60,597 nt of DNA, taken from the IMG/VR virus record IMGVR_UViG_3300042861_000484, positions 1 through 60,597 of that record. One strand, written 5' to 3'. The notes under the pieces are model-generated. The model was not told the origin of the DNA. It did no database searches and saw only the letters and a program-made list of their open reading frames with translations. Shown one piece after another: positions 6,423 through 51,100 of the stretch. The stretch's first letter is position 1; the number at the start of each line of letters is the position of its first letter. Origin of the DNA: a virus. Taxonomy: Duplodnaviria > Caudoviricetes. The translations under genes were made by a program, and so were the position numbers.

Positions 6423-6480
6423 AGCAAAAAACATTAATGCTATATTATCCTGAAAAATGGGCAATATAGTGCTCTAACTC

Positions 6481-6511
6481 TTTGTTATTCAATAGTCTTT
6501 ATATACTTTTA
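6481..6511 (+). promoter_or_regulatory. Bacteroidota-type sigma promoter for the scaffold/capsid operon
   Basis: TTTG (6481-6484) + 19 nt + TACTTTTA (6504-6511), one mismatch to TAnnTTTG; intergenic. Confidence 0.55.
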
Positions 6512-6541
6512 CATCCACAAACCAAATAAAAAGAACTACAT

Positions 6542-7854: not shown

Positions 7855-9408
7855 ATGGCAATTCAAACAATCCCAGGTTTAACTGGTTTTACCTATGCCC
7901 GCGTAGCCTCTATGGACAAGCGTGCTGTAGGTAAATTGACCGACGCTAACCACCTGGAATCATTCCACTCAACTGAGCCTGCAGACTATGACAAGAAGAT
8001 TATCTCCTTGTACACTCAGAGCTCACTGTACAGTAATGACTTCTTGGACATGATCAACAAGAGCACACCTTATTACATCGATAATAATAGTGATGCTTGG
8101 AAATGGCAAGTTCAGGTTCCTTACAAGTTCCCCAAAATCATCAATGTTCCTGATTCTACCCTGAATCTGAGCAAGCCTGGTATCGATGGTCAAGAGTTCT
8201 CTCTTGTTTTGGATACCAACGAGTTCTCTAAGAACGCTATCGTTTCTGTTGGTTCTCGTCAGTATGGTCCTCGCTTCTACGTTATTAAGGATCCCGTTCC
8301 TTGGAACATGGGCTTCCTGTATAGCTTCACCTTGGTGAGCGATAACCCCACTGTGGATTTCGTAAGTTCTACTTTCTTGCAAGTTGGTATCGAGCTTGAG
8401 CTGGTTGATGCTGCTATCGGTGAATTCGATCAGGATCTGCTGGGTCTTCCTCGCTTGGGTGAGAAGATCACTATGTTTGAATCTTTGGGTTCTGCATATG
8501 GTTTCGAGCACAAGATCACTGAGTGGGCTGATGACAAGATGATGAGAGATGCTTCTGGTAAGCCTCTGGATATCTTGGTATATGCTCCTCAGCGTAGAAA
8601 TCAACTTCCTTTGACTCGTAATGATGTTAAATGGGAGCCGTTTATTGAGTTCTGGATGCGTAAGTCTATGCTTGAGTTGAAAGTTAAGCGTATGATTTGG
8701 AGCAAGCCTGGTACTGTGAAGACTCATGGTAGCAAGCAAGAGCTGAAGCGTACATCTGCTGGTGTATATCACAGAATGCGTAACAACGGTAACCTGGTTC
8801 AATACAACCGTGGTGAGTTCTCTGCTAACCTGATTCGTTCAGTGTTTGGAGACCTGTTCTACAGACGTGTTGATGTTAAGGATCGTCGTGTTAAAATGTA
8901 TACAAACGAAGCTGGTTTTGACGTGTTCCAACAAGCTTTGAAGAATGACGCTTTGAACAGTGGTCTTACCTTCATGGCTGATAGCGGAAACCGTTACCTG
9001 CAGGGCGAAGGACAACACATCACTTACAACTTTGCATTCGATGCAATGGTTACTCGTGAGACTGGTCGTGTTGAACTGATCCACCTGAAGGAACTTGACC
9101 TGCCTCAAACTAACCTGGAATTTGGACAGAACAAGAAGTCTACCCCTGTATTCATGGTGTTTGACGTGTCTCCAATGTCTGATGGTTCTTTGGTTAACAA
9201 CATCCGTGAAGTTCGTATGAAGGGTGCACCTTCTATGACTTGGGGATATATCGATGGAACTCGCCACCACTTGGGCTTTGCTAAGTCTCAGGGTATGAGC
9301 TCTGCGAACAAATTCCCTGGTTACGAGATCTGGATGAAAGACCGTTGTGATGTATTCATCGAGGACCTGTCTCGCACAGTCTTGATTGAAGAGATCCCAC
9401 AGTTCTAA
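7855..9408 (+). CDS. major capsid protein (crAss-like HK97 fold)
   Basis: 517 aa, position after scaffold, highly biased codons (GCT, CGT, TTC, AAC), followed by structured intergenic region. Confidence 0.87.
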   Translation: MAIQTIPGLTGFTYARVASMDKRAVGKLTDANHLESFHSTEPADYDKKIISLYTQSSLYSNDFLDMINKSTPYYIDNNSDAWKWQVQVPYKFPKIINVPDSTLNLSKPGIDGQEFSLVLDTNEFSKNAIVSVGSRQYGPRFYVIKDPVPWNMGFLYSFTLVSDNPTVDFVSSTFLQVGIELELVDAAIGEFDQDLLGLPRLGEKITMFESLGSAYGFEHKITEWADDKMMRDASGKPLDILVYAPQRRNQLPLTRNDVKWEPFIEFWMRKSMLELKVKRMIWSKPGTVKTHGSKQELKRTSAGVYHRMRNNGNLVQYNRGEFSANLIRSVFGDLFYRRVDVKDRRVKMYTNEAGFDVFQQALKNDALNSGLTFMADSGNRYLQGEGQHITYNFAFDAMVTRETGRVELIHLKELDLPQTNLEFGQNKKSTPVFMVFDVSPMSDGSLVNNIREVRMKGAPSMTWGYIDGTRHHLGFAKSQGMSSANKFPGYEIWMKDRCDVFIEDLSRTVLIEEIPQF

Positions 9409-9438
9409 TACTGCTGCAGCTAAGCTGCGCCAAATACC

Positions 9439-9481
9439 GAGAGAAGAATGCCCCCCACCTCCAAGTGGGGGAGCTTCTCTC
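9439..9481 (+). other. strong stem-loop after the capsid gene
   Basis: GAGAGAAG/CTTCTCTC outer stem and CCCCCAC-CTCCAA-GTGGGGG inner stem; no U-tract. Confidence 0.6.
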
Positions 9482-9488
9482 AAATTAC

Positions 9489-9547
9489 AGAGTGATTGGG
9501 TTAGGGGATTCCTAATCGCTATCCCTTCGATGGGACTCACTCTGCCA
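9489..9547 (+). ncRNA. tRNA-like element lacking a D-arm
   Basis: 7-bp AGAGTGA/TCACTCT stem + G + CCA; GGTTAGG-GGATT-CCTAATC arm; TCCC-TTCGAT-GGGA T-like arm. Confidence 0.45.
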
Positions 9548-9577
9548 ATTTAAAACCAAATTAAATTTAACTACATC

Positions 9578-10546
9578 ATGGGTAAGATTGGAAAAATCTC
9601 TACGATTAAGAAAGAGTACAACAACTCTCAATTGCAGACAATGCAAGGCGGTCTTGCGATTAAAGGACTCACTAGAATTCCTGGTACAGGAGTTTTTAAG
9701 TATCCTTACAAAGAGCTAGATGGTAGATATAGAACAGGACTTGATCCTGAAGCTAACTACATCCGCAGAATCTCTGATCCTCTAGAAAGAGAACTGGAGG
9801 TTGAACGTGTAAAGAACCTTAGAGAGAAACTTGAAGTTGCTCTTGGGGGAATTGACCTGGGACCTCGTTCTAAGTTTTGGAACTATGGGCTCTCAACATC
9901 CTCAGATGATGCTCTCCACGTACAGCCTGTAAAGCTGGTAGATGGTGACAACTTCTTTGATCTTAGTATGCCTCTCCAAGAACTTGCATTCTCTTGGTTG
10001 CGTGTTCACCCCACAATTGCTTCTAGTTATCAAGCTTGGGAGCGTGGTGAATATCCTGCTGATATTCAGTTCTATGTAGCTGATGATGAAATTGAAAATG
10101 CTGTTCTGTTTAAGAAGAAGCAACTCATCAACAAGGCTATTGTCAAGTTTGATGCTATGACTCCTGAAAAGAAGAGAAAGGTAGCTCGCTTGCTTGGTTT
10201 GCCTGTTACAGAAGATACCAAAGAGGAAGCTGTATATAATCTAGTAGATAACGTCCTTAAACAAACTGAATTCAAGAATGGCAAATATCAAGGGCTGAAC
10301 CCTGTAGAGGTGTTCACTCGATTTGCAGATATGAAGGAAAACTTACTCCATATTAAAGACCTTGTAAAACAAGCCATCACACACTCAGTTTACAGACTGA
10401 AGGCTAATGGTAAGGTTTACGAAGGTGAGTTTGAAGTGGCAAAAGATGAGGATGATTTGGTAAAACATCTTGCCGATGATGATAATCAGGAAGATCTGAT
10501 TACCCTCGAACAAAAGTTGAAATCTAAAAAATTAGCTTCTGTATGA
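9578..10546 (+). CDS. conserved virion protein downstream of the capsid gene (crAss gene-75 position)
   Basis: 322 aa; synteny with the crAss capsid block. Confidence 0.7.
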   Translation: MGKIGKISTIKKEYNNSQLQTMQGGLAIKGLTRIPGTGVFKYPYKELDGRYRTGLDPEANYIRRISDPLERELEVERVKNLREKLEVALGGIDLGPRSKFWNYGLSTSSDDALHVQPVKLVDGDNFFDLSMPLQELAFSWLRVHPTIASSYQAWERGEYPADIQFYVADDEIENAVLFKKKQLINKAIVKFDAMTPEKKRKVARLLGLPVTEDTKEEAVYNLVDNVLKQTEFKNGKYQGLNPVEVFTRFADMKENLLHIKDLVKQAITHSVYRLKANGKVYEGEFEVAKDEDDLVKHLADDDNQEDLITLEQKLKSKKLASV

Positions 10547-35779: not shown

Positions 35780-38700
35780 ATGCCTCTTTTTGATGAAGAA
35801 TTGCTGAATAATCTTCGCAAGCCTGGAAACCTTCCGAGCTTAAACTCGTATGCAAGTTCCCCATATTCTGGGAACTATGAATACAGTTTTACCCCTCCTA
35901 GTGTTCCTTCCATGTTTGGAGGTTATGCTGATCGCTCGCAAAAAGAGGGAGGCATCACCTTAGAGGAAATGAAAAAAGCTACGCCAACATTCAATTTTGG
36001 ATTTGGTGCTGCTCCTCGTTTTGTCTCACAGCAAGAATTAAATGAAGCTGCTAACAGATATGGTTTTTTTAAAAGAGGTGTTGATTTAGAAGATATTGCT
36101 GCACAAAGACAATCCCCACTTTCAAGATTTGCAAATGGTATTATAAAAGGACTTGGAACAGCAGGAGGTACGTTCATTTCTGGATTTGGAACAATTCCAC
36201 ATGCAATTGATGCTTTTAGAAAGGGTTCCAACTTCATGGATGAAATCTCATCTCAATATGATTGGCAAAAAGATATTAGCGAAAACATTAAGCAATTTGA
36301 AGATCTTCTTCCTAACTATGTTGATAAATGGGAACGTGACCATCCTTTTGGTGGAGTGATTCCTTTTACAAGAGGATCTGCTAACTTCTGGGGAGATGGT
36401 GTATTCAAGAACCTGGGATATGGTGTTGGTGCTATTACCAATGCTCTTGTAACAGATGCAGCTCTTGTTGCAACTGGTCAAGGTCTTGCTGCTGCTCCTC
36501 TTATTGGAGCACAATTAACTAAGCTCGGAGCTGGTGTAACAAGCATGCTTGGTAGAGCTTCTGTACATTTAGGTAAGTTGGCAGCAGGCACAACAAAAAT
36601 GGATGAAGCTCTTGCTGTAGCTAGACAAGCTGGTGGTACAGCTGAACAACTGGCAACTGTAAGAGGACTTGCTTATGCTGCTGCAGGAACAAAAATTACT
36701 AGCGGATCAAGGTGGATGCTTGGTGTATTTAACTCAGCCCAAGCAGAAGCTACGATGGAAGCTGCTGATGGAGAACTTACAATTACTAATCATTTAATTG
36801 ATCAATATAAAAGACAACATAACGGTGATGCGCCTGTTGGTGCTGATTTAGAGGAGATTAAAAGAATAGCTGGTGATGCTAGGAATGTAAGATATGGCAT
36901 CAATATGGCACTTCTTGTTCCTTCTAACGCTTTTCAGTTTGGAAGTTTATTCAAAGGATTTTTTGCTCCTGCTGCTACAAGAGCATTAGCAAAAGGTGTT
37001 GCCACTGATGTTGGTAAGGTGAAGCTTGCTCAAGGATCTTTGGATGTATTTGAAAAGCAAGCTGTAACAGGACTTGCTCCAAAAGCTTGGAATTTTGTAA
37101 AGCCCACTCTGAAGAACATGTTTGCTGAAGGTGTTTATGAAGAGGGTGGACAGTTTGCTGCTGAGAAGGGTACGTTTGATTATTACACTAGAAAATATAA
37201 AAATCTCAAGGAGAACGGCAATCTTGAAAACTGGAGAACTGTTAATGAGATTATGACCTCTGGTATTGAGGGAATTGCAGAGCAGTTCACTAGCACAGAA
37301 GGTTTGAAGAGTATGCTTATTGGTTCCATCTCTGCTGTTATTCAGGGGGGTGTGGCTAATAAGATTCAAACAAAGATGGGTGCTCCCACAGAAGATCAGC
37401 GTTTGCAGAGTGCAATCAATATACTTAATAGATATGGATTGACAGGAATGTTGCAGAATCAGTATTCTGATACATTAAATGCTGCTGGTATTGCTAAAGA
37501 GATGGATGAGGCTGTAGCTTCTGGTAATGTGTTCAAATACAAGAACTTGAAGAACGACATGTTCTTCAACTTGGTTAACTCTCGTGCAATCAATGGGTTG
37601 CATGATGTTACCGTTGAACAGCTGAAGATGTTGAAAGATCTGGATGAGACTGAGTTCCAGAAGACCTTTGGAATGGACTTGAATGAAACAAACCAGAAGA
37701 CTGTTGCTGGTTATGTTGATGCGTTGATTGACAAGGCTAATCAGATGAACAAGTCAATCACCGCTATTAATGATACATTCAAGAATCCTTATACAAGATA
37801 TGATGATCCTCAAACTCAAGAAGAAGTCCTTCAGACATTCAGACACGATACAGTAAATGAATGGAAGACTAACCTAGCCTACTATTCCGCAACAATTGAT
37901 GATGTTAATGGTAGACTAAACAACATTGCTACTAGTGTATCAGAAATCAGTCCTCTGGTTGATACTAGTGTTCTCTCTACACTCACTAATCCTGAGAAGG
38001 TAAATGAGCTTGCTGAAACATATGAGGAACAAGCTATTCAGCTGAAAAAGACTATCAATGAATTCACTTCTCCTGAGGATAGAAAAAGAATAAACAATCA
38101 GGTGAAGGCTCTGCGTACAGCAGCTGAGAAGATTAAGATGGCTGCTGCTAACAAAGACATGACTCTTGATACCTTTGGTAAGCTTCTTAATTTTGAACTT
38201 TCTGGAAGAGAAAACTTAGATGCTGCTATTGTTCCCACTGATAAAAGATTTGATCTTTATAAGTATGGCTTTGATATCAATGCTTTAGAAACTCGTAGAC
38301 AACAGGGACTTGAATCATTTGATAAGCTTGCTTCTGAAGAAGGATTTAATAAATTCTTTGAACAAGCTGAGGAGATTAGAGATGAGGAATATGACTCTAC
38401 AGAGGAAGAAGAAGCTGAAGAGTCTGAGGTTACCACTCCTGAAGTTAAAGCAGCTGAGTTTAAAAACAAAGCTGGTGAAACAGAACTTCCTGAGGCAGAT
38501 AGAGAGTATTCTATTGCTCAGTTGAACAAAGCTAAGATTGAGAAGATTGCTGATGATAGATATCAAGTGACCTCTCCTACAGGAGAACTATCGTTCTATG
38601 AAACAAAAGCAGAGGCTGATGCAGCTGCTGATGTTATGAATGAGGAGCTCGAAGGATTGGAAAAGATTAAGGTGCTTGGTGTTAATGAAGATGGTACAAT

Positions 38701-41700
38701 TAAGGTGGAGGATGCCACTGGTAATATCCAGAACATCGATCCTAGATTGATGACAGGATATGAGAGAATCGAGACAGCCTCTGAGAAGATTGAAAAGAAC
38801 AAAGAGCAGATTGAGAAAGAACAAGCTGCCACTGAACTGAATTCTGGAAATGTGGCATCTGTTCCTGCAGAGGAAGGTGCTGTTATATCTGAAGGAAAGC
38901 TGAAAGATTACAGACAGCTTTTCATATCTGGAATTACAGAGTCTGAGGATTACAATGATCCTACACAGTCTGCTCCTCATGTTAAGCGTTCTAGAGAGTT
39001 CCTGAATAATGCTAAGAACTTCAAAAATAGAAACAAGCTTGCTACTATTCTTGTAACTCCTAACCAAGAGGTGACTCTTGGCTTGAGTGGTCTCATGGAG
39101 CTGTCCTATGGAACAAATGATAAGTCTGGTGCTACAGATGTTGAAAATGGATTTGTAGCTCAGGTGTTTGTTGAGCAAGATGGCGGAAAGCTCTACTTTG
39201 TAGATAAAGATGGTAAGCGTGTTGGTGAGGTTGGTAAACCTGTTGATATTCAACAAGTTGTATTCCAAACCATGCCCACTACAGATCTATTCTATAGAAC
39301 AAAAGATAAGAACGAAAAACCTAAACCTAGATATAGAGAAAATCAAAAAGCTGAAGCTGAAGCTGCTTCAAAAGCTTGGGGAATGAAAAGAGCTGAGCTG
39401 TTTGCTGCTCCAGCATTCCCTGTAAAGGCATATCAATTCACCATATCCAGAGGGGTTAGACGTGAGAATAAGGTGGATGGTAAATATGAAAGAAATCCTG
39501 TAGGAGGAATATTGATTCCTGAGGATAGGATTGCAACCACACAGGGTCTTCTCAAGATCTCTGAAGGAACTGTTTCACACAATGGTGTCTCTATTACAAT
39601 CCCTAAGGGTCTCACCGTATTACAATATGGTGATACACTGGATATTATAAACAATAATAAGTTTGGAAGAAAGAAGGCTAAGGCTATCTATGAGGTGCTG
39701 AAAGCTTTTGCTGAGGATATTAGAAAGCAATCTGAGGCTGGTAAGTCTATTAAGTTCAATAGAAACTATACCACCTTCCTAGAGAATGTTCTGTATTGGA
39801 GAAAGACTCCTGATACAAAGGGTAATCAAATTTATGTTGATGCCTCTAACATTTTCTTGGGTGGATTCAGATTCCCAATTGCTGATATAGCCACTCTTGA
39901 GGGTGAGATTGTAGATCAGCTTTCTGAAACCTACCATAACATCAATGGTAAAACTCTGAAGGATAAGTTCACAGAACCCTTCTATGAGTATACAGTGGAT
40001 GAGAATGGTAATCTAACTGAGAAGGAGTGGAGAAACTACCAGTCCTATCTGCTCAGCTCTGAAGGAAGATCAGCACAGGAGACTCCTCTTGTAACAAATG
40101 CTGCCAAGCCTACAGCAGAACTCCCATATTCCTTCAAGCAGAAATATGCTACATTAAACGATTTTGAACTTCCTGTTGTACAGGCTCCTAAAGTTGAGGC
40201 TAAGCCTGGTGTTCCAATGATTGGGGAGTTTGCAATGGATGGTACAACTGTTCACACATTCAATGGTTTCACCAGTGGTCCTGTAGAATTTACAGGAACT
40301 GTTGATGCTAATGGTAATGTTTCTGTAAATATCCAGGTTAATAAAACAATTAAAGAGGTTACTGATAATAAGAAGGTTGTCAATGGACCTGTTGTTGAAG
40401 GTCTGAAAGCTGCAAATCAATTTGATCCAACAGCTGAGGAAGAGCAGCTTGTTGTAACATATGTTGGTCTAAAGCTTATTGGTGAGCTCAACAAACTCAA
40501 GGAAGCCCAACAACAAGAAGCTCCTACAGCTCCCACACCAACAACTCCTGTTTCTACAGATGCTAAAGCTGATATAGAAAGAAGAAGACAGGAAGCATTA
40601 ACACTTAAATCAGAAACTAATAGTAATGGATATGAAGAAGGTGAGCGTATAGAAGAAAAAGAAGGTAAAAGAGATTTTTTCAAATACTATAGTTATTTTT
40701 ATGAGCATCCTATAGATGAAAATAATTTTGAAACTATAAAAGCAAGTACTAAAGAAGAATTATTTGATAAAATCAATGCTAAGTATGATGCAGAACTAGC
40801 TGTTTTAGAAGGAGCTAAACCTGCTGCTGCACCAGCTTCACCAGCAGTGAACAAGACAGTGTTCAGAATACTGGAGCAAGCGTTCTATGAGGGTAATGGT
40901 AAACGCTATGATGTTATTACAGATGCGCAGTTGCAAAGCATGTCTGCTGCAACCAAAACCTATCTGCTCAATCTTTATGAGCAGTTAAAAGCTTATAACG
41001 ATACGTTCAAGCGACTGGGTAAGGTGTTGGACCCTCAGACCAACAAAGAAATTACTACTGAGAGTGATAAGATTAAATACGTTACCTCTGCTTATTTCAG
41101 TGGATCTGGAAGACCTGGTAAGCTAGGATCTTCTGTAAGCATGACCTTTCCAGACCTGGTACTACCTGTACCTTCTGCAGAAGTGATCGCTGACTTTAAT
41201 TCTATCCTTGGTGCAAAGATCACCAACGAGCAGATGTCTGCTTTAGGAGTTTCAAAACAAGACACGTATAATCCTAATGATACAGGAGCTCCTGCTGATG
41301 AATATCAGAGAGTGGCTGAAACTGAGGCTGGTGAGGAAAGACTTACAGATGCTGAAATTGCACTGTTCAAAGCTTGGGCTAAGGAGAATGTTCCTGGTAT
41401 TCCTTTTGAAATACTTGACAATCTGGTTAATACATATGACAACCAGAAAGCATGGGGTGTGTTTGAAGATGGGGTGGCTAAGTTCTACAGAGGTGCTCTG
41501 AAAGGAACTCCTTATCACGAGGTGTTTGAGGGCATCTGGAAAGGATTCCTCACGCCTGAACAAAGACAAGCTATCCTTGATGAGTTCAGAGCTAAGAGTG
41601 GTAAGTTCAAAGACAGAGCTTCTGGCAAGATGTTATTCTATGAAGAGGCTACAGATCAGCAAGCTAAGGAAAGAATTGCTGATGACTTTGCTGCCTTCAG

Positions 41701-44700
41701 AACAGGTAAGATTGCTGCTAAGTCTCTGGGTCAGAAGATATTAGAGTTCTTCAAACAAATCATTGAGTTCTTCAAGAGCTTTGTTAGAAAGCCTTCTATG
41801 AAGGATCAGTTATTCAAAGCTATTGATTCTGGCAAGTTCAAAGAGGCTAAGCTTCCTGCTGATATCAAGTCTTCAAGACCTGAGTATCAACGTATTGCAG
41901 GACTTTCTGAAACTCAAGTGTTTGACTTTGTTCAAGATATGACAGCTCGTGCTGCCAACTATATCTTTGGTGGAAATAAAGAATCTCTTTATGAGCTGAG
42001 AGATGTCACTGGTAAAGAGGTGTTTGATAAGATTAAAGAGGCATACGCTTCTCCACAGGAAAGAAAATACCAGCAGCTTGGCGAAGAGAGATTTAACCAA
42101 TTGGTTAAGAGAACAAAACAATCTCTTCGTACACTTGGTATCAACTTCAATGAGGAGGATAGAATAGATATTAATGATGAAAATACATCTAGAACTGATT
42201 ATGCTCCTGAGCCTTTCAGTGTAGACTGGAAGAAGAGTTCTCCATTTGCTATTAAGTTTGTACTTGCTACACTCCCTAAGACAAAACCTACCAATCAGCA
42301 GAACTCCACATCACTGTCTCTTCCTGAGAGAGTTCTCTCTATGGCTAGTGGTGTTAAGGGATACATGCTTGTGAATTTCAACAGGGCGTTTGCTACTGTT
42401 TTGGGTAAGATGTCCAACACTAGCAGCACTGAAAAAGCTGCTGAGAAGATGGCTGATTTGGCTAAGCTGGATGCTGACTATGTACGTTTCTTCCAACGTG
42501 TAGGTGGTGATCTTAACACTGGCACATTCAATTTCTCTAATTTCAAAGATGCTGACTGGAGACTGTTTGTAAACTTCATGCAAACATTCACTAGACAGAA
42601 ACCTGATGCCCTGATTCAATACATCAAGGGTAATGAGGTGTACACTGCCCCAGCTAACCAATACACAGCTGCTGGTCAAGTAGAAAGACAGTGGTTGGAG
42701 AACATGAAAGTTGTTTCTACTAATGCTGATGCAGCCATTAGATACAACAGACCAAACAAAACATACGAGGCTAATCCTGCAGAATTCCCTGAGAAGACCC
42801 CCAAGCTCCCTGAAGAAATGGTGAAGTTTCTAGGAAGCATTGGAATTATATTCCCTCTTGAAGCATACGTTACACTAAAGTCTAATAAGCAGGATGACTT
42901 TGCAAGAGCTGTTTCCTCTATCTATACATACTTGCAGAAGGCAAGAAACATATCAGAGGTTACAGCAGACAAGCTTGGTATTGGTGGTCCTCTGAAGACT
43001 CTCACAAATCTGTATGTAAGTGCTACAAATCCCAATCAGGATAGCACCTATTTTGGTGTTGAGGGTCAGAGAATCCAGTCTGTAACAGATGATAATGCTG
43101 CTTCTCTGTTTGAGAACGAGTTTAACGAGGCTGGTTCTCTTGATCAGTTGCGTCAATCAAGACCTGAGCTGAACGATGTGTTTTCTAAAAGTAGTGTTAT
43201 TCTGAAGAAGGATGGAAGATTCTATAATGCTGATGGTGAATTAGTTAGAAACATTAAGGTTTCTTACATCCAAGGAACAAAGCTTAGAGATAGCAACAAA
43301 GGTGTAGCTACTAGCAAACTCACTATTGGAAAACGACTCACTCAGGAGATCAACCAGAATATCAATGGTAACTATTACATCTTGGTTCCTGGTGATGGTT
43401 CTACAGAATGGATGATGAACTTGGGTAACCATGTTTCATTTGCTGATGTAGAAGGTGGCAGAGCTTGGAACAAGATCTATACCATCTTCAAGGGCTACCT
43501 GAAAGATGAGGTGGCTTTAGCACTGGATGCTGATAACAGAAAGCAGATAAAGAACATTGGCAATAAAGCCAAAGAACTTCGCTTCTTCAAGGAAATACTT
43601 TCTGAAAAGACCCTCAAAGAGATCAATCAACTGATTGTCACTGGAGCTACAGAAAGCAGAATTTCTGAATATATTGATAATAACATATCTGACATCAATG
43701 CTGCTGTTAAAGAGTTTATTGAAAACACAGTAAATGAAACTAGAGCTAACTTAGAGTCTAGTAATCAGGTGGCTATGGTGAAGGAAGACCAGTTCACTTA
43801 TGCAGAACTGGATAGCACATTTGCCACATCTGAAGGTATCAGAAAGTTCAGAATGAGCAATGATGATGTGAACAATCTTGTTACATTCCTGAATGCTAAC
43901 TATATCATCAACAACATTGAGTTCCACAAAATCCTGTTTGGTGACCCCTATCAGTTTGCTATCAAGAATGGTAAATTGGATGAGACCAAGCGTATCAAAT
44001 CATTCCTCTCTCCCAGACGTAGAACAATTGATAGTCCTGAGTTCAATACATTCCTAAATGATGAGTATAATAAGTCTGGGGATGTACAGCTTCTGCCAAC
44101 TGATCTTGGATATCATGAGAACAAGTCTTACACCAAGACAGCTACTCTCTCTGATATTGAGTTTGGTACAAGTCTCTATCCCAAGGTGAATGAGGCAGAT
44201 GCTGCTTCTTTGATCATGGACAACACCTATCGTGAGGTGAAACTCAAGAATGGTCAGTGGAGTAAGGAAGCTGAAAACTGGCATCAATGGCAAATGGCTT
44301 ACATGAGAAGAGCCATGGATAAGAAAGGTGCATGGTCTTACGAAGGTAGAGAAGCTTTGCAAAAGGCTGATAATGAACTGCTTAGCAAACCTGAACCTAC
44401 ATTTGTTACAGAGGTGCTTAAGCCTATTGTATCTGGTGTTAAGAATAATGAGAACAAAATTGATATTGTTCTTGACAAGTTCTCTCAGATGCCTTTGTAT
44501 TATAAGTCTATTGAAGGCACAAACCTAGAGAAGCTCTACATCAAGATGATGGAGGAGAAGGTTGGCTATGTGGTTATGGAGTCTGGTAGAAAGGCTGGAG
44601 CTACAGCTCTCAACAAGTTCTACAATGAGGATGGATCATTCAATGAGAATCCTTTTGTAGGAACAATTGATGTTGCTTGGAAGTCTTATGGCATCCAGGT

Positions 44701-47700
44701 GGAGAACAGCTTTGAGAATCCCAAAGAGCAAACTCGTGGTAGCCAGTTAACAAAATTGTTTAGTCTTGACTTCTTTAATAATGGTGAAGCTAGCAACGAG
44801 GCTAGAGCTGAATTCAATAAGAATAAGGAGATTCTCAAGCAAATGCATGAGAATGGCTACAACCAAATCCTGAAGAAGCTGGGTATTGAAGACCTGGGAT
44901 ATGCATTCAATGTTGTAGACAAGGTGGCTATTCAAGAAACCCTTGAGTATGAACTACTTAGAAGAGAGCTCAATGAGAATGCAATTGACACAATTCAGTT
45001 GGATGAGAATGGTGAATTTAGAATTCCGTTTGAAGCATCTCCTGCATATCAACAGATTAAGAACGTTCTCTATTCTATTGTAAACAAACAGCTCACTAGT
45101 CCCAAGATGAATGGTGGTCCCAAGGTGCAGGTTCCTGTCACTGGTTGGGAGAAGGGAAATAGAGATCCTAAAGGTGCAAACCCTGCACTGAAGTTCTATA
45201 CTAAGGAAGATCCTTACATGGAGGTATATCTTCCCCACTGGTTCAGAAATAAGTTCAATAAGAACAAGTTCCCCACAGATGAATCTATCCTAAACTATCT
45301 AAACAAGACTGATGAGGGTAAGAAGATCCTGACAGGAATTGGTTTCCGTATTCCTACACAGTCTATGTCCTCTGTTGAGGTGTTTCGTGTGAAAGGGTTC
45401 CTGCCTCAGAGCATGGGTGATACAATTATTGTTCCTTCAGAGATTACAGCAAAGGCTGGTTCTGACTTTGATATAGACAAGATGAACACCTATTTGAGAT
45501 CTGTCTATGTAGACAAGAGTGGTGATGTTCGTCTGGTTAAATATAGAGGTTCTGAAGAAGCTACCAGAGAGTTCTATGCTGGTGTATTTGATGAGGTATT
45601 GGCTGGTAAGAAGGTAAAGAAAGATGATCTATTTGAAGCTCTTCAGATTCGTAAATACGGACTGGATGATTCAAAAGGTCTTGTAGATAGATATGGTAAT
45701 CTTTTGGATACACTGCTGTCTGAGGTGGAGAATGAATCTGAACTTGAAGCAAAGCTTGAAGAGGAGCTTCTCAAACTTGGGGATGAAAATCTGCAAGCTG
45801 CTCTGAAGGACAGATTTATAGATGAGATGTACAAGCGTTCTTTGGAGAATGAGTATTACGACTCTCTGGAAAGAATGATCACACTTCCTGAGAACTTTGA
45901 TCGTCTGGTGTCTCCTGTAGATGATGCTGGTCTTGCTAAAGCTGCTGCTGAGCTAGACACTCTTAGAAATGAGGATGAGTCTCAAATCAAGAACAGATTG
46001 CTCAACAGAAGCTACATGACCAACCTCAGACATGCTTTTGTAACAGCTAAGAAATGGGTGGGTATTGCTGCGGTAAATATTACAGGTCAATCACTTACAC
46101 AGAAAACTGAAACATATATTGACCCTGCTAGATTTGAGCTGGTTAATGCTATTGATAAGAAATGGTTGGGTGATGGCACAATTGCTCTTCCTCACAACAC
46201 TGTAACTGTTGATGGTAAAACATATGTTTCCATCTCTGGAAAGATGACTGCTGATAATAAGAGCTTCATCTCTGACAGGCTCTCTGGATATGCTACAGCA
46301 TTTGTGGATGTGGCAAAAGATCCATACATTATGAAGATTATCAAGTCTGACTTGGTAACTAGTACATTCATGTTCTTGGAGAGAATTGGTATTGGAAAGA
46401 ACACAGTGTTGTTTATGAATCAGCCAATTATTACAGAATACCTGAAATACTTGGATGCAAAGGATGCTAAGTTCCTGTTTAACACTGATGATGTTGCAGC
46501 AGTCTTGAATAAGTTCCCAGCCACTAGAGATAGTGTTAAGGAAGCTAAGATAGACGTAGCTAAACTCAAGGATAACATCAAAGACTATTCTGAAGGTAAG
46601 CTTGGTGATGAAAGAAATGCTGAACAACAGAGGATCTTGATGGAGTTTTTGAAATATGCTAAGATGGCTGATTATAGTTTCAAGCTCACACAGGCTACAA
46701 ACTATGACACCACCAAGTTCAAGAATAGCGATTCTTTCTACAAGAAGACTAGCAGAACTGCTATGGCTAGAGAAACAAACATCTTCTCTTCTGTAGACAA
46801 GGTGTTGGAAAACTCATTCATAGGAGACCAGGCTGATCTGTTGAACAGATCGATGGTTGGTATGGGTGCTATATTGAAGCTTGAGCAGGATGACTATAGA
46901 TACATCATCAACCAGGTACTTGCTCCTTACAGTGAGCAGATGTACATGAGTGCTGATGATTTTGATAGAGTGGCTAACAAGCTCAAGGCTTCTTTCCTAG
47001 ACTTCATCATCCAGACCAAAACTGGATTGAATTCTGAAATTAGAGAACTGGCTGTTGATCTTAGAACATCTGTAGCAAGACAGCTTGCTGAGGCACAGAA
47101 GAATTTTCCTAACGTTAAGATTCTCAATGACTTAACTGTATCTACCTCAGATAAATTAGAAGGTGGTGCAAAGACTGTTACATTGAAAGCAAACCCCAAG
47201 GATGCTTTTGATGAGAACACTTACATTGAGATGATGAGAGAGTTAAGAGATAATCCTGAGACTAGAAATCTGTATTACGATATAGTGTCACTTTCTATTC
47301 TCCAGGGATCATATCAGTCTGCTGTATCTATCAAGAACATCATTCCTGTAGAGGATTATGCTGCTGCAATTTCTGAGACAATCAATACTCTTTCCAACTC
47401 CCCAGAGCTTGAGATCTTCTCTAAAGAGGCATGGTTCCAAAAGAACAACTGGAAAGATGATGCTGTTGTTCCTCCAGTGACACCAAAATTCTTCCTGGCT
47501 TCTGAGAGTCCTATAGATGTTATAGAGGTGGGGGATGATCTTGTGGATGTATATCAGTATTATTCTGAGCTGTTCCCAAGTATTGAGCCTTTGAAAATCC
47601 AATCTACAGATAGAAGAGTGTTGCTTCTCAGTGAGAAGTTTAACGCTAAGCATGTTGGCTATGATGTTGTAAAGGTGCCTAGAGTGATCACAATGAAGGG

Positions 47701-48190
47701 TGGAGAGATGGTTGATATTGTCACTGGTAGAAACATCACCCCTGCAGAAAGAGTGAGAAGAATAGCTTCTGGAGAGTCTGGTTTGAACGATGTGTTTGGT
47801 TATCAGAAGGTTAGATATGGTAATGGAGAACCTGTAGTTACAGAAAAGGGTCAGCATGTATACAAGCTTATCAATCTGTATGGTGATGGATCTCTGGTTT
47901 CTGAATACTACAATGATGGCAGACCTTCTGTAATTGATAATGGTACAGTGAAGATTAGCGATAACATTTCTAATGATACATTAATTGAGTACTTTGCTCC
48001 TAGAATTGAAGAAAGAATCGTATCTTCGGCACCAGAAGTAGCTAGCACTACAAAGATATCCACACCATCAGGCAAGCTGAAACTTAAGGATGGTAACGAA
48101 TACAACATCAGTGATATTAATGCTGAGCTATTAGAGAGCATAGGTTACAAACCAAAAGAAATCGGTAAACTGTTAAAATCAATCTGTTAA
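35780..48190 (+). CDS. giant virion RNA polymerase polyprotein (double-psi beta-barrel) with hydrophobic N-region and zincin-like domain
   Basis: GFRIPTQ and AGSDFDIDK catalytic DxDxD (45464-45478); YHEVFE zincin-like motif; 4136 aa. Confidence 0.9.
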   Translation: MPLFDEELLNNLRKPGNLPSLNSYASSPYSGNYEYSFTPPSVPSMFGGYADRSQKEGGITLEEMKKATPTFNFGFGAAPRFVSQQELNEAANRYGFFKRGVDLEDIAAQRQSPLSRFANGIIKGLGTAGGTFISGFGTIPHAIDAFRKGSNFMDEISSQYDWQKDISENIKQFEDLLPNYVDKWERDHPFGGVIPFTRGSANFWGDGVFKNLGYGVGAITNALVTDAALVATGQGLAAAPLIGAQLTKLGAGVTSMLGRASVHLGKLAAGTTKMDEALAVARQAGGTAEQLATVRGLAYAAAGTKITSGSRWMLGVFNSAQAEATMEAADGELTITNHLIDQYKRQHNGDAPVGADLEEIKRIAGDARNVRYGINMALLVPSNAFQFGSLFKGFFAPAATRALAKGVATDVGKVKLAQGSLDVFEKQAVTGLAPKAWNFVKPTLKNMFAEGVYEEGGQFAAEKGTFDYYTRKYKNLKENGNLENWRTVNEIMTSGIEGIAEQFTSTEGLKSMLIGSISAVIQGGVANKIQTKMGAPTEDQRLQSAINILNRYGLTGMLQNQYSDTLNAAGIAKEMDEAVASGNVFKYKNLKNDMFFNLVNSRAINGLHDVTVEQLKMLKDLDETEFQKTFGMDLNETNQKTVAGYVDALIDKANQMNKSITAINDTFKNPYTRYDDPQTQEEVLQTFRHDTVNEWKTNLAYYSATIDDVNGRLNNIATSVSEISPLVDTSVLSTLTNPEKVNELAETYEEQAIQLKKTINEFTSPEDRKRINNQVKALRTAAEKIKMAAANKDMTLDTFGKLLNFELSGRENLDAAIVPTDKRFDLYKYGFDINALETRRQQGLESFDKLASEEGFNKFFEQAEEIRDEEYDSTEEEEAEESEVTTPEVKAAEFKNKAGETELPEADREYSIAQLNKAKIEKIADDRYQVTSPTGELSFYETKAEADAAADVMNEELEGLEKIKVLGVNEDGTIKVEDATGNIQNIDPRLMTGYERIETASEKIEKNKEQIEKEQAATELNSGNVASVPAEEGAVISEGKLKDYRQLFISGITESEDYNDPTQSAPHVKRSREFLNNAKNFKNRNKLATILVTPNQEVTLGLSGLMELSYGTNDKSGATDVENGFVAQVFVEQDGGKLYFVDKDGKRVGEVGKPVDIQQVVFQTMPTTDLFYRTKDKNEKPKPRYRENQKAEAEAASKAWGMKRAELFAAPAFPVKAYQFTISRGVRRENKVDGKYERNPVGGILIPEDRIATTQGLLKISEGTVSHNGVSITIPKGLTVLQYGDTLDIINNNKFGRKKAKAIYEVLKAFAEDIRKQSEAGKSIKFNRNYTTFLENVLYWRKTPDTKGNQIYVDASNIFLGGFRFPIADIATLEGEIVDQLSETYHNINGKTLKDKFTEPFYEYTVDENGNLTEKEWRNYQSYLLSSEGRSAQETPLVTNAAKPTAELPYSFKQKYATLNDFELPVVQAPKVEAKPGVPMIGEFAMDGTTVHTFNGFTSGPVEFTGTVDANGNVSVNIQVNKTIKEVTDNKKVVNGPVVEGLKAANQFDPTAEEEQLVVTYVGLKLIGELNKLKEAQQQEAPTAPTPTTPVSTDAKADIERRRQEALTLKSETNSNGYEEGERIEEKEGKRDFFKYYSYFYEHPIDENNFETIKASTKEELFDKINAKYDAELAVLEGAKPAAAPASPAVNKTVFRILEQAFYEGNGKRYDVITDAQLQSMSAATKTYLLNLYEQLKAYNDTFKRLGKVLDPQTNKEITTESDKIKYVTSAYFSGSGRPGKLGSSVSMTFPDLVLPVPSAEVIADFNSILGAKITNEQMSALGVSKQDTYNPNDTGAPADEYQRVAETEAGEERLTDAEIALFKAWAKENVPGIPFEILDNLVNTYDNQKAWGVFEDGVAKFYRGALKGTPYHEVFEGIWKGFLTPEQRQAILDEFRAKSGKFKDRASGKMLFYEEATDQQAKERIADDFAAFRTGKIAAKSLGQKILEFFKQIIEFFKSFVRKPSMKDQLFKAIDSGKFKEAKLPADIKSSRPEYQRIAGLSETQVFDFVQDMTARAANYIFGGNKESLYELRDVTGKEVFDKIKEAYASPQERKYQQLGEERFNQLVKRTKQSLRTLGINFNEEDRIDINDENTSRTDYAPEPFSVDWKKSSPFAIKFVLATLPKTKPTNQQNSTSLSLPERVLSMASGVKGYMLVNFNRAFATVLGKMSNTSSTEKAAEKMADLAKLDADYVRFFQRVGGDLNTGTFNFSNFKDADWRLFVNFMQTFTRQKPDALIQYIKGNEVYTAPANQYTAAGQVERQWLENMKVVSTNADAAIRYNRPNKTYEANPAEFPEKTPKLPEEMVKFLGSIGIIFPLEAYVTLKSNKQDDFARAVSSIYTYLQKARNISEVTADKLGIGGPLKTLTNLYVSATNPNQDSTYFGVEGQRIQSVTDDNAASLFENEFNEAGSLDQLRQSRPELNDVFSKSSVILKKDGRFYNADGELVRNIKVSYIQGTKLRDSNKGVATSKLTIGKRLTQEINQNINGNYYILVPGDGSTEWMMNLGNHVSFADVEGGRAWNKIYTIFKGYLKDEVALALDADNRKQIKNIGNKAKELRFFKEILSEKTLKEINQLIVTGATESRISEYIDNNISDINAAVKEFIENTVNETRANLESSNQVAMVKEDQFTYAELDSTFATSEGIRKFRMSNDDVNNLVTFLNANYIINNIEFHKILFGDPYQFAIKNGKLDETKRIKSFLSPRRRTIDSPEFNTFLNDEYNKSGDVQLLPTDLGYHENKSYTKTATLSDIEFGTSLYPKVNEADAASLIMDNTYREVKLKNGQWSKEAENWHQWQMAYMRRAMDKKGAWSYEGREALQKADNELLSKPEPTFVTEVLKPIVSGVKNNENKIDIVLDKFSQMPLYYKSIEGTNLEKLYIKMMEEKVGYVVMESGRKAGATALNKFYNEDGSFNENPFVGTIDVAWKSYGIQVENSFENPKEQTRGSQLTKLFSLDFFNNGEASNEARAEFNKNKEILKQMHENGYNQILKKLGIEDLGYAFNVVDKVAIQETLEYELLRRELNENAIDTIQLDENGEFRIPFEASPAYQQIKNVLYSIVNKQLTSPKMNGGPKVQVPVTGWEKGNRDPKGANPALKFYTKEDPYMEVYLPHWFRNKFNKNKFPTDESILNYLNKTDEGKKILTGIGFRIPTQSMSSVEVFRVKGFLPQSMGDTIIVPSEITAKAGSDFDIDKMNTYLRSVYVDKSGDVRLVKYRGSEEATREFYAGVFDEVLAGKKVKKDDLFEALQIRKYGLDDSKGLVDRYGNLLDTLLSEVENESELEAKLEEELLKLGDENLQAALKDRFIDEMYKRSLENEYYDSLERMITLPENFDRLVSPVDDAGLAKAAAELDTLRNEDESQIKNRLLNRSYMTNLRHAFVTAKKWVGIAAVNITGQSLTQKTETYIDPARFELVNAIDKKWLGDGTIALPHNTVTVDGKTYVSISGKMTADNKSFISDRLSGYATAFVDVAKDPYIMKIIKSDLVTSTFMFLERIGIGKNTVLFMNQPIITEYLKYLDAKDAKFLFNTDDVAAVLNKFPATRDSVKEAKIDVAKLKDNIKDYSEGKLGDERNAEQQRILMEFLKYAKMADYSFKLTQATNYDTTKFKNSDSFYKKTSRTAMARETNIFSSVDKVLENSFIGDQADLLNRSMVGMGAILKLEQDDYRYIINQVLAPYSEQMYMSADDFDRVANKLKASFLDFIIQTKTGLNSEIRELAVDLRTSVARQLAEAQKNFPNVKILNDLTVSTSDKLEGGAKTVTLKANPKDAFDENTYIEMMRELRDNPETRNLYYDIVSLSILQGSYQSAVSIKNIIPVEDYAAAISETINTLSNSPELEIFSKEAWFQKNNWKDDAVVPPVTPKFFLASESPIDVIEVGDDLVDVYQYYSELFPSIEPLKIQSTDRRVLLLSEKFNAKHVGYDVVKVPRVITMKGGEMVDIVTGRNITPAERVRRIASGESGLNDVFGYQKVRYGNGEPVVTEKGQHVYKLINLYGDGSLVSEYYNDGRPSVIDNGTVKISDNISNDTLIEYFAPRIEERIVSSAPEVASTTKISTPSGKLKLKDGNEYNISDINAELLESIGYKPKEIGKLLKSIC

Positions 48191-51100
48191 TGGCAACTTG
48201 TCCAAATATCAATCTTGACTCTTGGAAGAACCTTGTGGCAACTAGAGGTGAGGATGTAGCCTATTATCTGTGGGATAAGTTTGATGGCAATGTCCCTGAT
48301 AGTGAAAGTAGAGAGTCTATTGTAAAGTCTGGATTGAAGGCAGTGAATGCTCTTCAGTCTGACAAGGCTACTCAGCTTTTCAACACTCTTGCTAAGAACA
48401 AGGTGACAGGTGATACATTCTGGAATAAGATACAACAGGATCTTGGCATTCCAAAGGATCAAGTGGAACTATTAAAGTCTTTTGACACCACCAATCGTGA
48501 GGAGCTGGTTACCAACATGTTAGCTAATTATAGCTTTGCTATTGAGATTAATGTTGCCAAAGACAGTTATAGAGAACCTTCACAAAATTATTTTAGAGAT
48601 CCTGAGACAGGAGAAGAGTTTGGTTTACAGGAAGATTTTGGAGGAAGTGGATATTACTCTAATTTAACAGTTCCAGGAGGAACCAACTATACAGAGAATG
48701 AAATAGCTACACCAGCTATTACACCAAATATAAAAGGACATGCTCAGTTTGCTACAGACCAAGGTATTGGATGGTTTAGAAGTGATGAGGCTAGTTTTAT
48801 TAAACAAGCTATGTCTATTCAAAATAAAGAAAAAGATTTTGAATTTGCAGGAAGTAAATATACTCAGGAATATTCTTTAGCTAAAGGATTCGTACATAAA
48901 AAAGATGGAAATATAATATCAGAAGAAGAATATAGAAAAGCTAAATATGCAACTCCTAAAACCCGTAGAATACTAGAAGTACAATCTGACTTGTTTCAGA
49001 AGGGTAGGGATAGACAAGATTTAGCAGATATAAATAAATTTAAACCTTTAGGTTTAACAAAAGAAGAGGCTATAAAAGCAGGTAAACCTGAAAATGATTT
49101 CCTTCAACTCCTAAACCAAGGATCTAACTGGGTGACATTCTTTGTTAAGTCTATCATCCAGGACTCTGCTAAGAAGGGATATAACAAGGTGCTGTTCCCT
49201 AAAGGAGATACAGCTAGTAAGATTGAGGGACATACTACTTTAGAACAATTTAGGAGACAGAAGGAAAATAGGATAAAGGAACTTGATGAGATTATAGAAA
49301 AGAATAAAAACCTTGAGATTATTGAAGTTGTTGATTCCACAGGAAAGTATTATAGACTTCGTCAGAAAGATACAAAAACGGAAATGGTTGGTTCATATAG
49401 AACCATGGAGAGTGCAGAAACAGCTATTAGTGAAAAAATATTTATCAAAGAAAGAGATCAGCTTAAACAAGAACTTGAAAGAGTAGAGAGAGAAGGATTT
49501 GGTGCTCTCAAGCCTATCTTTAACTTCTATGAAACCACTGTAGCCAATGTTCTGAAGAAGCAGGGATACAGTCCTAAGGTGGTAACAGATGAATATGGTA
49601 ATCAGTGGAATGAGATAAGTATTGTTCCTGAAAGAGAAGCGCAACCTATCCTTTTGCAGAAAAAAGGAACAGCTACTGCAACAGCCTCTCCCAAAGTGCT
49701 AAAAATTGTAAAGCAGTTTATCAAAGACATTGGTGTTGATATTAAAGCTGTTAAGAATATTGTAGTGGATGGACAAAAAATGGATGCTGATGGAGCAGCC
49801 ATGGTTATGCAGAAGCTCATTCAGGTGGTAGAGGGTAAAGAGGCTCAAGCTCTTCCTGAGGAAGCAATGCACTTTGTTGTTGAAATTATCAAGCAAACCA
49901 ATCCCAAGCTCTATCAGCAGCTTCTCAAGGAGATCAATGGTACAAAGACTCTGTCTGAAGTATTTGCTCAATATGGCACTGATCCTAATTACCAAACCAA
50001 GGAAGGTAAGCCTGATGTATTAAAGCTGAAAGAAGAGGCTATTGCCAAGGTGCTTGCACAAACTATTATTAAACAAGCAGAAGGATCTATTGAAACCACT
50101 GAGACCAAGTCTAAGATTCAACAGTGGTGGGATGATATTCTCCAGTGGATCAAGAACCTGTTTGCAAGAAGTGGGTTTGATCAGGTGGCTATGGATATTA
50201 TGGCTGGTAAGTTTGAAGGCACTGCTGAAGACATCAGAGTTGCTGAAGATAGAGTGTTTTTCCAACTTAGCCCTCAGGGTAGGGTGATTAACAAGCTGAA
50301 AGAAATCAGTTCCAAGATTGAGAAAAAAGAGGATGGTTATTATATAGATGGTAAGAAGATTGGTCGAAGAGTGACAGATTTGGTGAATGATTGGTATGAG
50401 AGAAGATTCAGAGATAGAGATCTTACCAAGAGTGATTACCAAAAGGCTGTGGATGATTTAAAAGCTGAGAAGGGTACAGCTGGTCACAAGGATATAGAGT
50501 ATATTCTTAGTATTCTGGTAGATGAGAACGGTAAGCTGAAAGAAACTCCTTCAGACGATAGTGGATATCAGTCTAGACTTGATCGTGACAATAGAGACAT
50601 GTATGAGCTTCTCAAAGCAAACATGATTGAGCGTCTTAATTCCTTTCCCAAGGGCACAGTGTTTCTATCTGAAACTACAGTGTATGATGCTAAGCGTGGG
50701 ATTGCTGGTACTATTGACTTCTTAGCTATTGATCCTGATGGCAACACAAGTGTGCTTGACTGGAAGTTCATGGACATCAATATTGATAAGTATCAAGAGA
50801 TTCCTTGGTATAAGGTGGGTTCTTGGCGTACACAGATGGAGCAATACAAACAAATATTGCAACAGGTGTACGGTATTCAGAATCAGAACTTTAAGCAAAC
50901 CAGAATGATTCCCATTCAGGCTATGTATTCTAAAGGAAATGCCAAAGAAGACATTCTCCCTAAGCTCATGGGTATCAAGATTGGTGATGTGAATGTGAAG
51001 AACATTACAGAAGACTTCTTAATTCCTGTTGGTCTGGAAGCAGAGAAAACAGGAAACCCTGATGTAGATAGAAAGATTGCTGAGCTAAACACTTTGTATA

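Follow-up and report, generated by a model that had tools for sequence, protein, structure and literature searches.

A conserved three-way-junction RNA downstream of the capsid gene in crAss-type phages and its possible role as a tRNA-like punctuation element

We analyzed a 60,597-nucleotide stretch of viral DNA (IMG/VR record IMGVR_UViG_3300042861_000484; hereafter, the window), a 60.6-kb fragment of an uncultured virus that is estimated to be about half complete and encodes a crAss-type capsid. Here we describe a 59-nucleotide (nt) element in the spacer directly downstream of its major capsid protein gene. Our data indicate that this element is a real RNA structure under selection, a three-way junction formed on the gene strand. 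The element is not itself a transfer RNA (tRNA), since among the hallmarks of tRNA it has only the length of the acceptor stem.

A selected three-way-junction RNA after the capsid gene

A preliminary description of this DNA had placed a tRNA-like element of three stems, lacking a D arm, at positions 9489-9547, right after the capsid gene. The letters of these 59 bases are as claimed there, and RNAfold applied to the 59 nt alone returns the three-stem fold as it had been drawn, as both the minimum-energy and the centroid structure (-20.9 kcal/mol). This single sequence is not significantly stable compared with its shuffles (z -1.84; 11 of 200 shuffles were equally stable). The element lies inside the 169-base spacer between the capsid gene and the next gene (9409-9577), and the fold of the whole spacer reaches -58.6 kcal/mol (z -5.57), a value attained by none of 200 shuffles. 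The junction is tight, with 0-3 free bases between helices; the 0-3 bases between helix 1 and arm 2 are mostly paired into arm 2. Its parts in the window are as follows.

9487..9545, + strand: three-way-junction RNA element, the whole match to covariance model R1 (65.9 bits, E 1.1e-14)
9488..9495, + strand: helix 1, 5' strand, pairing with 9537-9544; 8 base pairs (bp) here and 7-8 bp in most relatives
9537..9544, + strand: helix 1, 3' strand, partner of 9488-9495
9496..9521, + strand: arm 2, with a core stem of 9499-9505 paired to 9511-9517 and a loop at 9506-9510
9522..9535, + strand: arm 3, with a stem of 9522-9525 paired to 9532-9535 and a six-base loop, UUCGAU, at 9526-9531
9545..9547, + strand: the 'CCA' of the preliminary description, of which only the first C is conserved and the rest is apparently a lineage-specific accident

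In the whole-spacer fold the outer stem has eight pairs, from C9488-G9544 to A9495-T9537. Arm 2 is extended by the pairs G9498-C9519 and T9496-A9521, across an invariant bulged G9518.

Evidence for selection on this fold comes from relatives of the window. A search of IMG/VR with the capsid returned at least 599 matches, and the best 80 loci, with capsids 96-100% identical to that of the window, were used. Despite this capsid identity, their spacers are only 68-98% identical to the window spacer, and together with the window they gave 57 distinct spacers. The covariance model R1 was built from an alignment (A1) of the 57 elements and has 59 positions and 18 pairs. R1 found one match per spacer in 57 of 57, always after the capsid gene and on the gene strand, with scores of 36.7-75.9 bits. 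In the 60.6-kb window the junction is single copy: with filters off, the next-best R1 match scored 11.7 bits (E = 1).

Pairs were counted on the alignment returned by the R1 search (A3), which holds 50 distinct sequences. Standard pairs fill 87.3% of pair cells, compared to 67.2 +/- 0.9% after shuffling, and 0 of 500 shuffles reached the observed value; when the 3' partners were slid by 1-3 columns, pairing was only 40-57%. Double changes occur in 15 of the 18 pairs, including all seven core pairs of arm 2 (93.9% of cells paired) and all four pairs of arm 3 (95% of cells paired). The extension pair G9498-C9519 is GC in 47 sequences, AU in 3 and unpaired in none, and two further pairs are often formed. 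Helix 1 is understated in these alignments (76% paired) since A2 and A3 shift its 3' strand by one column in 16 of 50 rows, and the RNAalifold consensus omits helix 1 owing to the same shift. Because of this shift we counted helix 1 from both ends, and found positions 1-7 paired in 49, 50, 50, 50, 50, 50 and 47 of the 50 sequences. Its inner three positions covary (position 5, GC 37 and TA 13; position 6, TA 24, GC 14 and AT 9), and the pair C9488-G9544 remains C-G in 48 of 50 sequences and is replaced by T-A, through a double change, in one.

Folding each sequence individually led to the same structure. Of the 50 distinct sequences, 48 gave a junction of two hairpins with this same closing pair, and the elements had fold energies of -17 to -29 kcal/mol. 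In 42 of 50 sequences the + strand folded more stably than the complementary strand, and of 1050 predicted pairs 99 were G-U. Little or no variation is seen in the A-G-A/U-C-U core of helix 1, in G9498, G9518 and C9519, or in the U, U, C and last U of the arm-3 loop. A DNA-level element was also considered, and was rejected in view of the G-U pairs and the strand asymmetry.

A descriptor scan collected 125 distinct junction sequences, containing 29 helix-1 strands, 46 arm-3 stems and 106 arm-2 sequences. Their arm-3 loops are UUCGAU (42), UUCGGU (31), UUCAAU (31), UUUGAU (7), UUCGCU (6) and others (8). The descriptors caught 94 and 114 of 126 distinct spacers with some hits misplaced, and were used for length and loop tallies only; presence or absence of the junction was judged by R1 plus inspection.

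We found the junction well beyond the closest relatives. In a set collected from an 83%-identical capsid, R1 matches 65 of 80 loci. The 15 loci without a match comprise eight 'mini' junctions with a 4-bp arm 2, two variant junctions, two loci without a junction (L155, L158) and three loci with a tRNA or tRNA-like gene instead (L084, L085, L086). In a set collected from a 64%-identical capsid, 43 of 52 loci have an R1 match with E no higher than 0.1, including L163, whose capsid is 63% identical to that of the window. Mini junctions with a UUCGAU loop are present in L164 (58% capsid) and L168 (64%), L162 carries a reduced form, and L165-L167, with capsids of 71-72%, have no junction. A search of relatives from the 51%-identical capsid P0122 gave no pattern match. 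Complete genomes with terminal repeats contain the junction once in G001 and once in G003. Wherever present, the junction is placed between the capsid hairpins and the leader of the following gene, and overall four lineage states occur: junction only, junction and tRNA, tRNA only, and neither. Since compensatory changes are found in all three helices and the element is conserved down to 58-64% capsid identity, our data indicate purifying selection on the fold.

These comparisons also bear on the anatomy given in the preliminary description. The acceptor-like stem described as 7 bp is real and covaries, but has 8 pairs in the spacer context. The supposed discriminator base, G9544, is instead the partner of C9488, and the supposed linkers 'TTG' and 'GCTA' are partly paired, with G9498-C9519 never open in the 50 sequences. 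A lack of conservation or covariation of the stems and CCA in relatives, along with a lack of RNA ends at these positions, had been named there as grounds for refutation; all three stems covary, and the CCA is not kept.

Comparison with tRNA and with tRNA genes in the same slot

We found no tRNA in the window with ARAGORN, which in bacterial mode called none of 126 elements. A permissive mitochondrial mode called 17 of 126, with inconsistent identities and without the window copy among them. The Rfam tRNA model (RF00005) had no match in 9300-9700 at E up to 10, nor to the junctions of six loci at E up to 1. In Rfam 15 as a whole, no match with E up to 10 rose above chance (RNase MRP at 12.1 bits, with a threshold of 50, and small nucleolar RNA models with E above 1). 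The check by tRNA finders and Rfam that the preliminary description had proposed therefore yielded no acceptance of the element.

The absence of a D arm and of a U33/purine-37 context, both noted in the preliminary description, was borne out. There are three helices only, and arm 2 offers no 5-bp anticodon stem, 7-base loop, U33 or purine 37. Arm 2 varies from about 3 to 11 bp (7-10 in the main lineage, 3-4 in the mini forms) with loops of 3-6 bases and no conserved sequence. Helix 1 is contiguous over 7 bp in 24 of 50 sequences and over 8 bp in 15 of 50, which agrees with the length of an acceptor stem. The stem of arm 3 is 3-5 bp by the descriptor tally, and an unpaired C follows helix 1 in most versions.

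Genuine tRNA genes do occupy the same slot in some relatives. A scan for a T-arm motif plus the leader pattern returned 71 contigs; since these were selected for having a tRNA, the counts carry no frequency information. ARAGORN called a tRNA in the slot of 69 of the 71 (65 Met-CAT, 3 Thr-CGT and 1 of the L084 type), the end of the capsid gene was visible upstream in 64, and Rfam confirmed both slot tRNAs tested (L208, 60.2 bits; L085, 55.7 bits). An R1 match lies directly upstream of the tRNA in 48 of the 71 contigs. Among 51 distinct upstream regions there are 35 R1 matches and 8 more junctions found by folding; the other 8 are L283, two truncated loci, one false hit, the L084 type, two regions with an upstream HNH gene, and one other. 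In L283 the minimum-energy fold has both arms and leaves the outer helix unclosed. Helix 1 and the tRNA are spaced by 6 nt, and in L208, which has both, they are 5-6 nt apart. The slot tRNAs fall into several diverged sequence types, which suggests that they are old residents. The junction persists beside this long-resident tRNA and is thus not merely a stand-in for a tRNA cleavage site. Beyond the bases TTCGA we found no sequence likeness between junctions and neighboring tRNAs. Two slot genes are given here as examples.

L208:3228-3302: tRNA-Met(CAT), called by ARAGORN; also in 64 further contigs (L244-L314)
L084:3224-3294: cloverleaf with good acceptor, D and T arms and a 6-base anticodon loop, called 'tRNA-???' by ARAGORN; in the slot, with no junction

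The L084 element had no match to the Rfam tRNA model at E up to 1, and could represent either a tRNA in decay or a tRNA-like element that does not decode. L085 and L086 carry a tRNA-Met(CAT) between the capsid hairpin and the leader, with no junction. The complete genome that contains L085 (G004, 117.6 kb, with terminal repeats) has this slot tRNA as its only tRNA, and R1 finds no junction in it; the complete genomes G001 and G002 have no tRNA. Read by eye, the commonest slot tRNA-Met type seems initiator-like, with unpaired C1/A72 and with A73. The tRNAs of L266, L270 and L304 share the backbone of L255/L259 and carry the anticodon CGT.

A possible punctuation signal in the late transcript and its alternatives

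The junction is one of three structures in the spacer: RNAfold of 9409-9577 gives a small hairpin, a long G+C-rich hairpin and then the junction, followed by the leader of the next gene.

9413..9430, + strand: small first hairpin (RNAfold of 9409-9577); sequence and presence vary, and relatives have different hairpins
9439..9481, + strand: long G+C-rich hairpin, with a purine-rich 5' base, a pyrimidine-rich 3' base, a variable tip and no U tract after it
9552..9577, + strand: A-rich leader without structure, AAACCAAAU ... ACUACAU, reaching the ATG of the next gene; almost all relatives conserve it

The long hairpin is kept, with altered tips, in the spacers of relatives, including relatives without the junction. 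The leader occupies 25-30 bases before the ATG, and the same leader also precedes gene 6542. Upstream of gene 6542, in 41 distinct relatives, a TTTG box is followed after about 19 nt by a TA(C/T)TTTTAC box and, 6-9 nt on, by the leader (in the window, TTTG lies at 6481-6484 and its partner box at 6504-6512, and the leader begins at 6519). This promoter-like pair resembles the Bacteroidota -33/-7 promoter. A conserved AATGCTATATTAT motif (6436-6448), which lies further upstream of gene 6542, forms the 5' side of a hairpin. No -33/-7-like pair of boxes was found in front of the leader of gene 9578, and a terminator consensus scan of 9409-9577 found no site on the + strand, its only site being on the - strand (9472-9451). 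Since neither a + strand terminator nor a promoter-like pair precedes the leader, co-transcription of the junction with the capsid gene fits these data. The junction ends 4-7 bases upstream of the leader, so a cut just after the junction would give the downstream message nearly the 5' end of a primary transcript.

The position downstream of the junction is a hot spot for cassette insertion. HNH endonuclease open reading frames (ORFs; 102-151 amino acids, phrog_2255, E 8e-23) are inserted between the junction and the next gene, as in L070:4737-5045 and in the same slot of L083, L176, L181, L197, L202, L212 and L226; a Pfam search with the inserted small ORF gave no match. These ORFs capture the first leader and the first codons (MGK/MGR...), with a second copy of the leader behind them, and the junction stays upstream. 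A search for RNA-labelled runs gave 24, all in the form of assembled contigs, and four metatranscriptomes (X1-X4) were placed on 8800-10300 at 88% likeness; such contigs cannot show RNA ends, and a difference in depth between the capsid gene and the next gene is unusable in them. None covers 9463-9513. Capsid contigs stop at 9394 (X2) and 9415 (X3), and an X3 contig of the next gene starts 8 bases before its ATG. One X4 contig joins the capsid gene to the sequence from 9553 on, and the spacer between them, though similar in length, does not align. The spacer is the most variable part of this region, and the RNA contigs speak neither for nor against processing.

We propose that the element probably punctuates the late transcript, as a signal for its processing or stability. 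More specifically, and tentatively, it may be a tRNA-like signal at which RNase P and/or RNase Z, or some related nuclease, cuts and so separates the capsid mRNA from the next cistron. A tRNA-like processing signal is the most economical reading since the closing helix is 7-8 bp, one arm carries a UUC-led loop, and the slot is shared with true tRNAs. The junction would be encoded in cis, be transcribed within the late capsid transcript and mark the border between the capsid and the next cistron. Helix 1 (7-8 bp) could stack on arm 3 (3-5 bp, UUC-led loop) to form an 11-12 bp 'minihelix' that resembles the stacked acceptor and T arms and might be recognized by host tRNA-maturation nucleases. 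RNase P would then cut 5' of C9488, and RNase Z or an RNase E-type enzyme just after C9545. The capsid mRNA would be left ending in the stable hairpin 9439-9481, and the downstream mRNA would start a few bases before its leader, like the presumably promoter-made leader of gene 6542, so that the two messages could gain different lifetimes. In a large sub-lineage with tRNA-Met 6 nt downstream, junction and tRNA would form a two-unit array. The conserved helix-1 core, the bulged G and the UUC..U loop suggest an additional, sequence-specific partner. It is possible, if doubtful, that the element goes further than this and is a tRNA-derived, non-decoding mini-RNA, built of an acceptor/T-like minihelix and one free arm, that serves as tRNA punctuation. 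Host RNase P and RNase Z would excise it, by itself or together with a resident tRNA-Met, as a stable product of about 57 nt that binds a specific protein of host or phage.

Several observations weigh against a tRNA-like signal, beginning with the fact that neither ARAGORN nor Rfam accepts the element. A T arm is defined by a 5-bp stem with a G53-C61 closing pair and by a 7-base loop, UUCRANY. The T-loop-like arm of the preliminary description does have a UUC-led loop and a covarying stem, but its loop has 6 bases rather than 7, just about two thirds of the 125 sequences have A in the fifth loop position, and the closing pair is mostly C-G (C-G 39, G-C 8 and U-G 3 of 50). The CCA end is likewise present in the window but nearly confined to it: among 94 descriptor hits an encoded CCA follows helix 1 in two (CAA in 57, CTA in 17), and in the alignment of relatives nearly all have GC-AAAT or GC-TAAT there. 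On the sequences compared, the CCA ending is a chance feature of the window's lineage. The summed length of helix 1 and arm 3 (n=94) is 12 bp in 43, 11 bp in 21, 10 bp in 13, 13 bp in 9, 9 bp in 6 and 15 bp in 2, a tally whose 12-bp peak comes from a descriptor that favors long pairings and in which 0-3 bases may separate the helices. Four distinct spacers have neither junction nor tRNA (L155, L158, the L165/L166 version and the L167 version). The sequence of tRNA acceptor stems is not conserved, and the conserved sequence of helix 1 therefore points to a sequence-specific partner rather than to RNase P alone. Furthermore, the junction is kept, with compensatory changes, beside a diverse and evidently old real tRNA, where it would be redundant if it were only a cleavage signal. 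In sum, the tRNA-mimic processing signal of the preliminary description keeps a selected, gene-strand RNA in a tRNA slot, but loses its CCA, its discriminator and its acceptance by tRNA detectors.

Some of the same observations would be expected if the element were a protein-binding or nuclease-specific stability or processing element of the capsid mRNA 3' region, unrelated to tRNA enzymes. As a joint claim this is possible and on balance unlikely: a host or phage factor such as an RNase III-like, Cas6/Csy4-like or RegB-like endonuclease, or a protein acting as an exonuclease roadblock, would read the bulged G together with the A-G-A/U-C-U base of the helix and the loop UUC..U. It accords with invariant bases in helix, bulge and loop, with the failed tests for tRNA membership, with a junction that persists beside a real tRNA, and with one that stays on the capsid side despite downstream insertions of a tRNA or HNH gene. 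Hairpin 9439-9481 has a similar conserved purine-/pyrimidine-rich base, which suggests that one factor might serve both structures. It lacks a candidate protein, however, and the long hairpin alone would already stop 3' exonucleases; the settlement of tRNAs at this place, the 7-8 bp of helix 1 and the peak of the summed lengths at 12 would also go unexplained. Regulation of translation of the next gene (9578-10546), with the junction as an operator or enhancer in its 5' untranslated region, is very unlikely. Although the ATG follows the junction at a distance of 25-35 nt in most relatives and the intervening leader is conserved, in many relatives the two are separated by a tRNA of about 80 nt or by an HNH gene of 350-500 nt that brings a second leader, gene 6542 has the same leader with no junction, and four distinct spacers have no junction. 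We consider it equally improbable that the element is a transcription terminator, attenuator or antiterminator. It does follow the most highly needed late gene and stands beside a strong hairpin, but no U tract follows either structure, the spacer has no + strand consensus, and a branched junction is the wrong shape; L158, which lacks the junction, has an ordinary hairpin and U run instead. The L158 spacer itself (72 nt) consists of the capsid hairpin and then the U run, an ordinary terminator shape unlike the window spacer.

The remaining explanations have little probability. A trans-acting small RNA, cut out of the transcript to serve as a decoy for tRNA-targeting defenses or for tRNA-binding host factors, would draw on the partial likeness to acceptor and T arms, the stable compact fold and the tandem arrangement with a tRNA, and is quite improbable given that it has no CCA, D arm or elbow. 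The equivalent of the anticodon arm has no conserved loop length or sequence; since the loop of arm 2 is not conserved, there is nothing for anticodon nucleases to recognize, and the decoy for such nucleases suggested in the preliminary description is unlikely on account of the variable arm 2. Small ribozymes are often found between phage genes, and a small, conserved, branched RNA with few invariant bases in such a place recalls a self-cleaving ribozyme of an undescribed class. This is highly improbable, since almost no unpaired junction bases are available for an active site and no known ribozyme family was matched in Rfam at E up to 10. Least probable of all, to the point of being nearly negligible, is a decaying tRNA pseudogene without function: the tRNA slot and the L084 cloverleaf, with its 6-base anticodon loop unrecognized by Rfam, are what such decay might look like, but the junction has compensatory changes in all three helices, is conserved to 58-64% capsid identity and has no likeness to neighboring tRNAs beyond TTCGA. 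Two further candidates were rejected. For a riboswitch there are almost no unpaired junction bases to form a pocket, and the likeness to a phi29-like packaging RNA is one of shape only; a large ORF of terminase size lies upstream.

Known systems, genomic context and significance

Each of several known systems shares some features with the junction. Like tRNA (RF00005), it is closed by a helix of 7-8 bp, has a short stem with a UUC-led loop that connects to the 3' strand of this helix, and takes a position aligned with genuine tRNA genes; it differs in failing the family model and every hallmark except acceptor-stem length. In the D-armless tRNAs of mitochondria, such as metazoan tRNA-Ser(AGY), the anticodon stem has 5 bp and its loop 7 bases, and these tRNAs decode. 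The junction shares their three arms (acceptor stem, central arm and T-like arm), whereas its central arm varies in length, with loops of 3-6 bases and no fixed sequence. The RNase III sites of phage T7 late genes are single irregular hairpins that separate messages and leave protective 3' hairpins. Both they and the junction are structured spacers in a polycistronic phage transcript, but the junction is branched and stands beside a tRNA slot.

The closest parallel is with plant mitochondria. There, tRNAs at the ends of mRNAs undergo cleavage by RNase P and RNase Z, cuts that t-elements are regarded as directing too, and t-elements are, like the junction, non-decoding tRNA-like folds that have an acceptor-like stem and a T-arm-like hairpin and that lie at mRNA borders in places where real tRNAs also occur (PMC1920247). 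For the junction, such places are represented by 68 contigs with real tRNAs and one with a pseudo-tRNA. The t-elements keep the T-arm motif GGTTCRANYCC, are near-cloverleaf, and have ends that were mapped experimentally. The junction has a 6-base loop, a mostly C-G closing pair, no equivalent of a D arm and a conserved helix 1, belongs to a bacterial virus, and is described here from its sequence. Non-tRNA substrates of RNase P usually mimic parts of tRNA, and the 3'-end processing modules of MALAT1 and MEN-beta imitate, as the junction would, parts of tRNA read by RNase P and RNase Z and serve to generate RNA ends (PMC4919922). The precursor of the phage P1/P7 C4 RNA is another such substrate. 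Cleavage of these RNAs is experimental, whereas that of the junction is proposed; C4 and many bacterial model substrates need a 3' RCCA, and the junction has no conserved one. Among the titles and abstracts listed for crAss-like phages and Crassvirales there is no description of such an element, and those listed for tRNA punctuation together with bacteriophage all concern mitochondria. The element is best filed with tRNA-like, t-element-like punctuation elements, the alternative being a new protein-recognized phage RNA motif.

The genes that flank the spacer are the following.

7855..9408, + strand: major capsid protein gene, 517 amino acids, crAss-type (Pfam PF23898 Crass_capsid, E 4.7e-27; phrog_11589, major head protein)
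9578..10546, + strand: next gene, 322 amino acids, a PHROG of unknown function (phrog_16383, E 8.7e-08)

A Pfam search with the product of 9578..10546 found no family. All large ORFs around the capsid spacer are on the + strand, and the window also holds two giant + strand ORFs, at 35780-48190 (4136 amino acids) and 48190-54228 (2012 amino acids). A DNA search of named phages had no match and a protein search had a sole match of 26.5%, to a Leptolyngbya phage, so there is no cultured model for this virus. Contigs of metagenome-assembled genomes that carry this capsid (L315-L325, one of 112 kb) come from Bacteroidota bins in 6 of 11 titles, a weak hint that the host belongs to Bacteroidota. The bin names are Sediminibacterium (2), Cytophagales (2), Kapaibacterium (2, counted as Bacteroidota by our own reading) and 'uncultured Bacteroidetes' (1); the remaining bins are Aquiluna, Tissierellales, Gudongella and Clostridium.

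In uncultured phages, structured RNAs have hardly been explored, and the comparative support for this one, with 125 distinct versions, is unusually clean. The element is also abundant, since its capsid family has at least 599 matches in IMG/VR. It sits after the capsid gene, at the border where the phage most needs a change in expression, and the four lineage states formed with tRNA-Met provide a natural experiment on the post-transcriptional control of late-gene stoichiometry. Furthermore, the element is relevant to the question of what determines the placement of lone phage tRNA genes. If the mini-RNA reading is right, the lifetime of the capsid mRNA would be uncoupled from that of the downstream messages, and the junction would be a phage counterpart of mitochondrial t-elements and of mascRNA. 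Should tRNA enzymes make the cut, tRNA punctuation would extend from organelles to phages; should they not, the junction would represent a new protein-recognized RNA motif.

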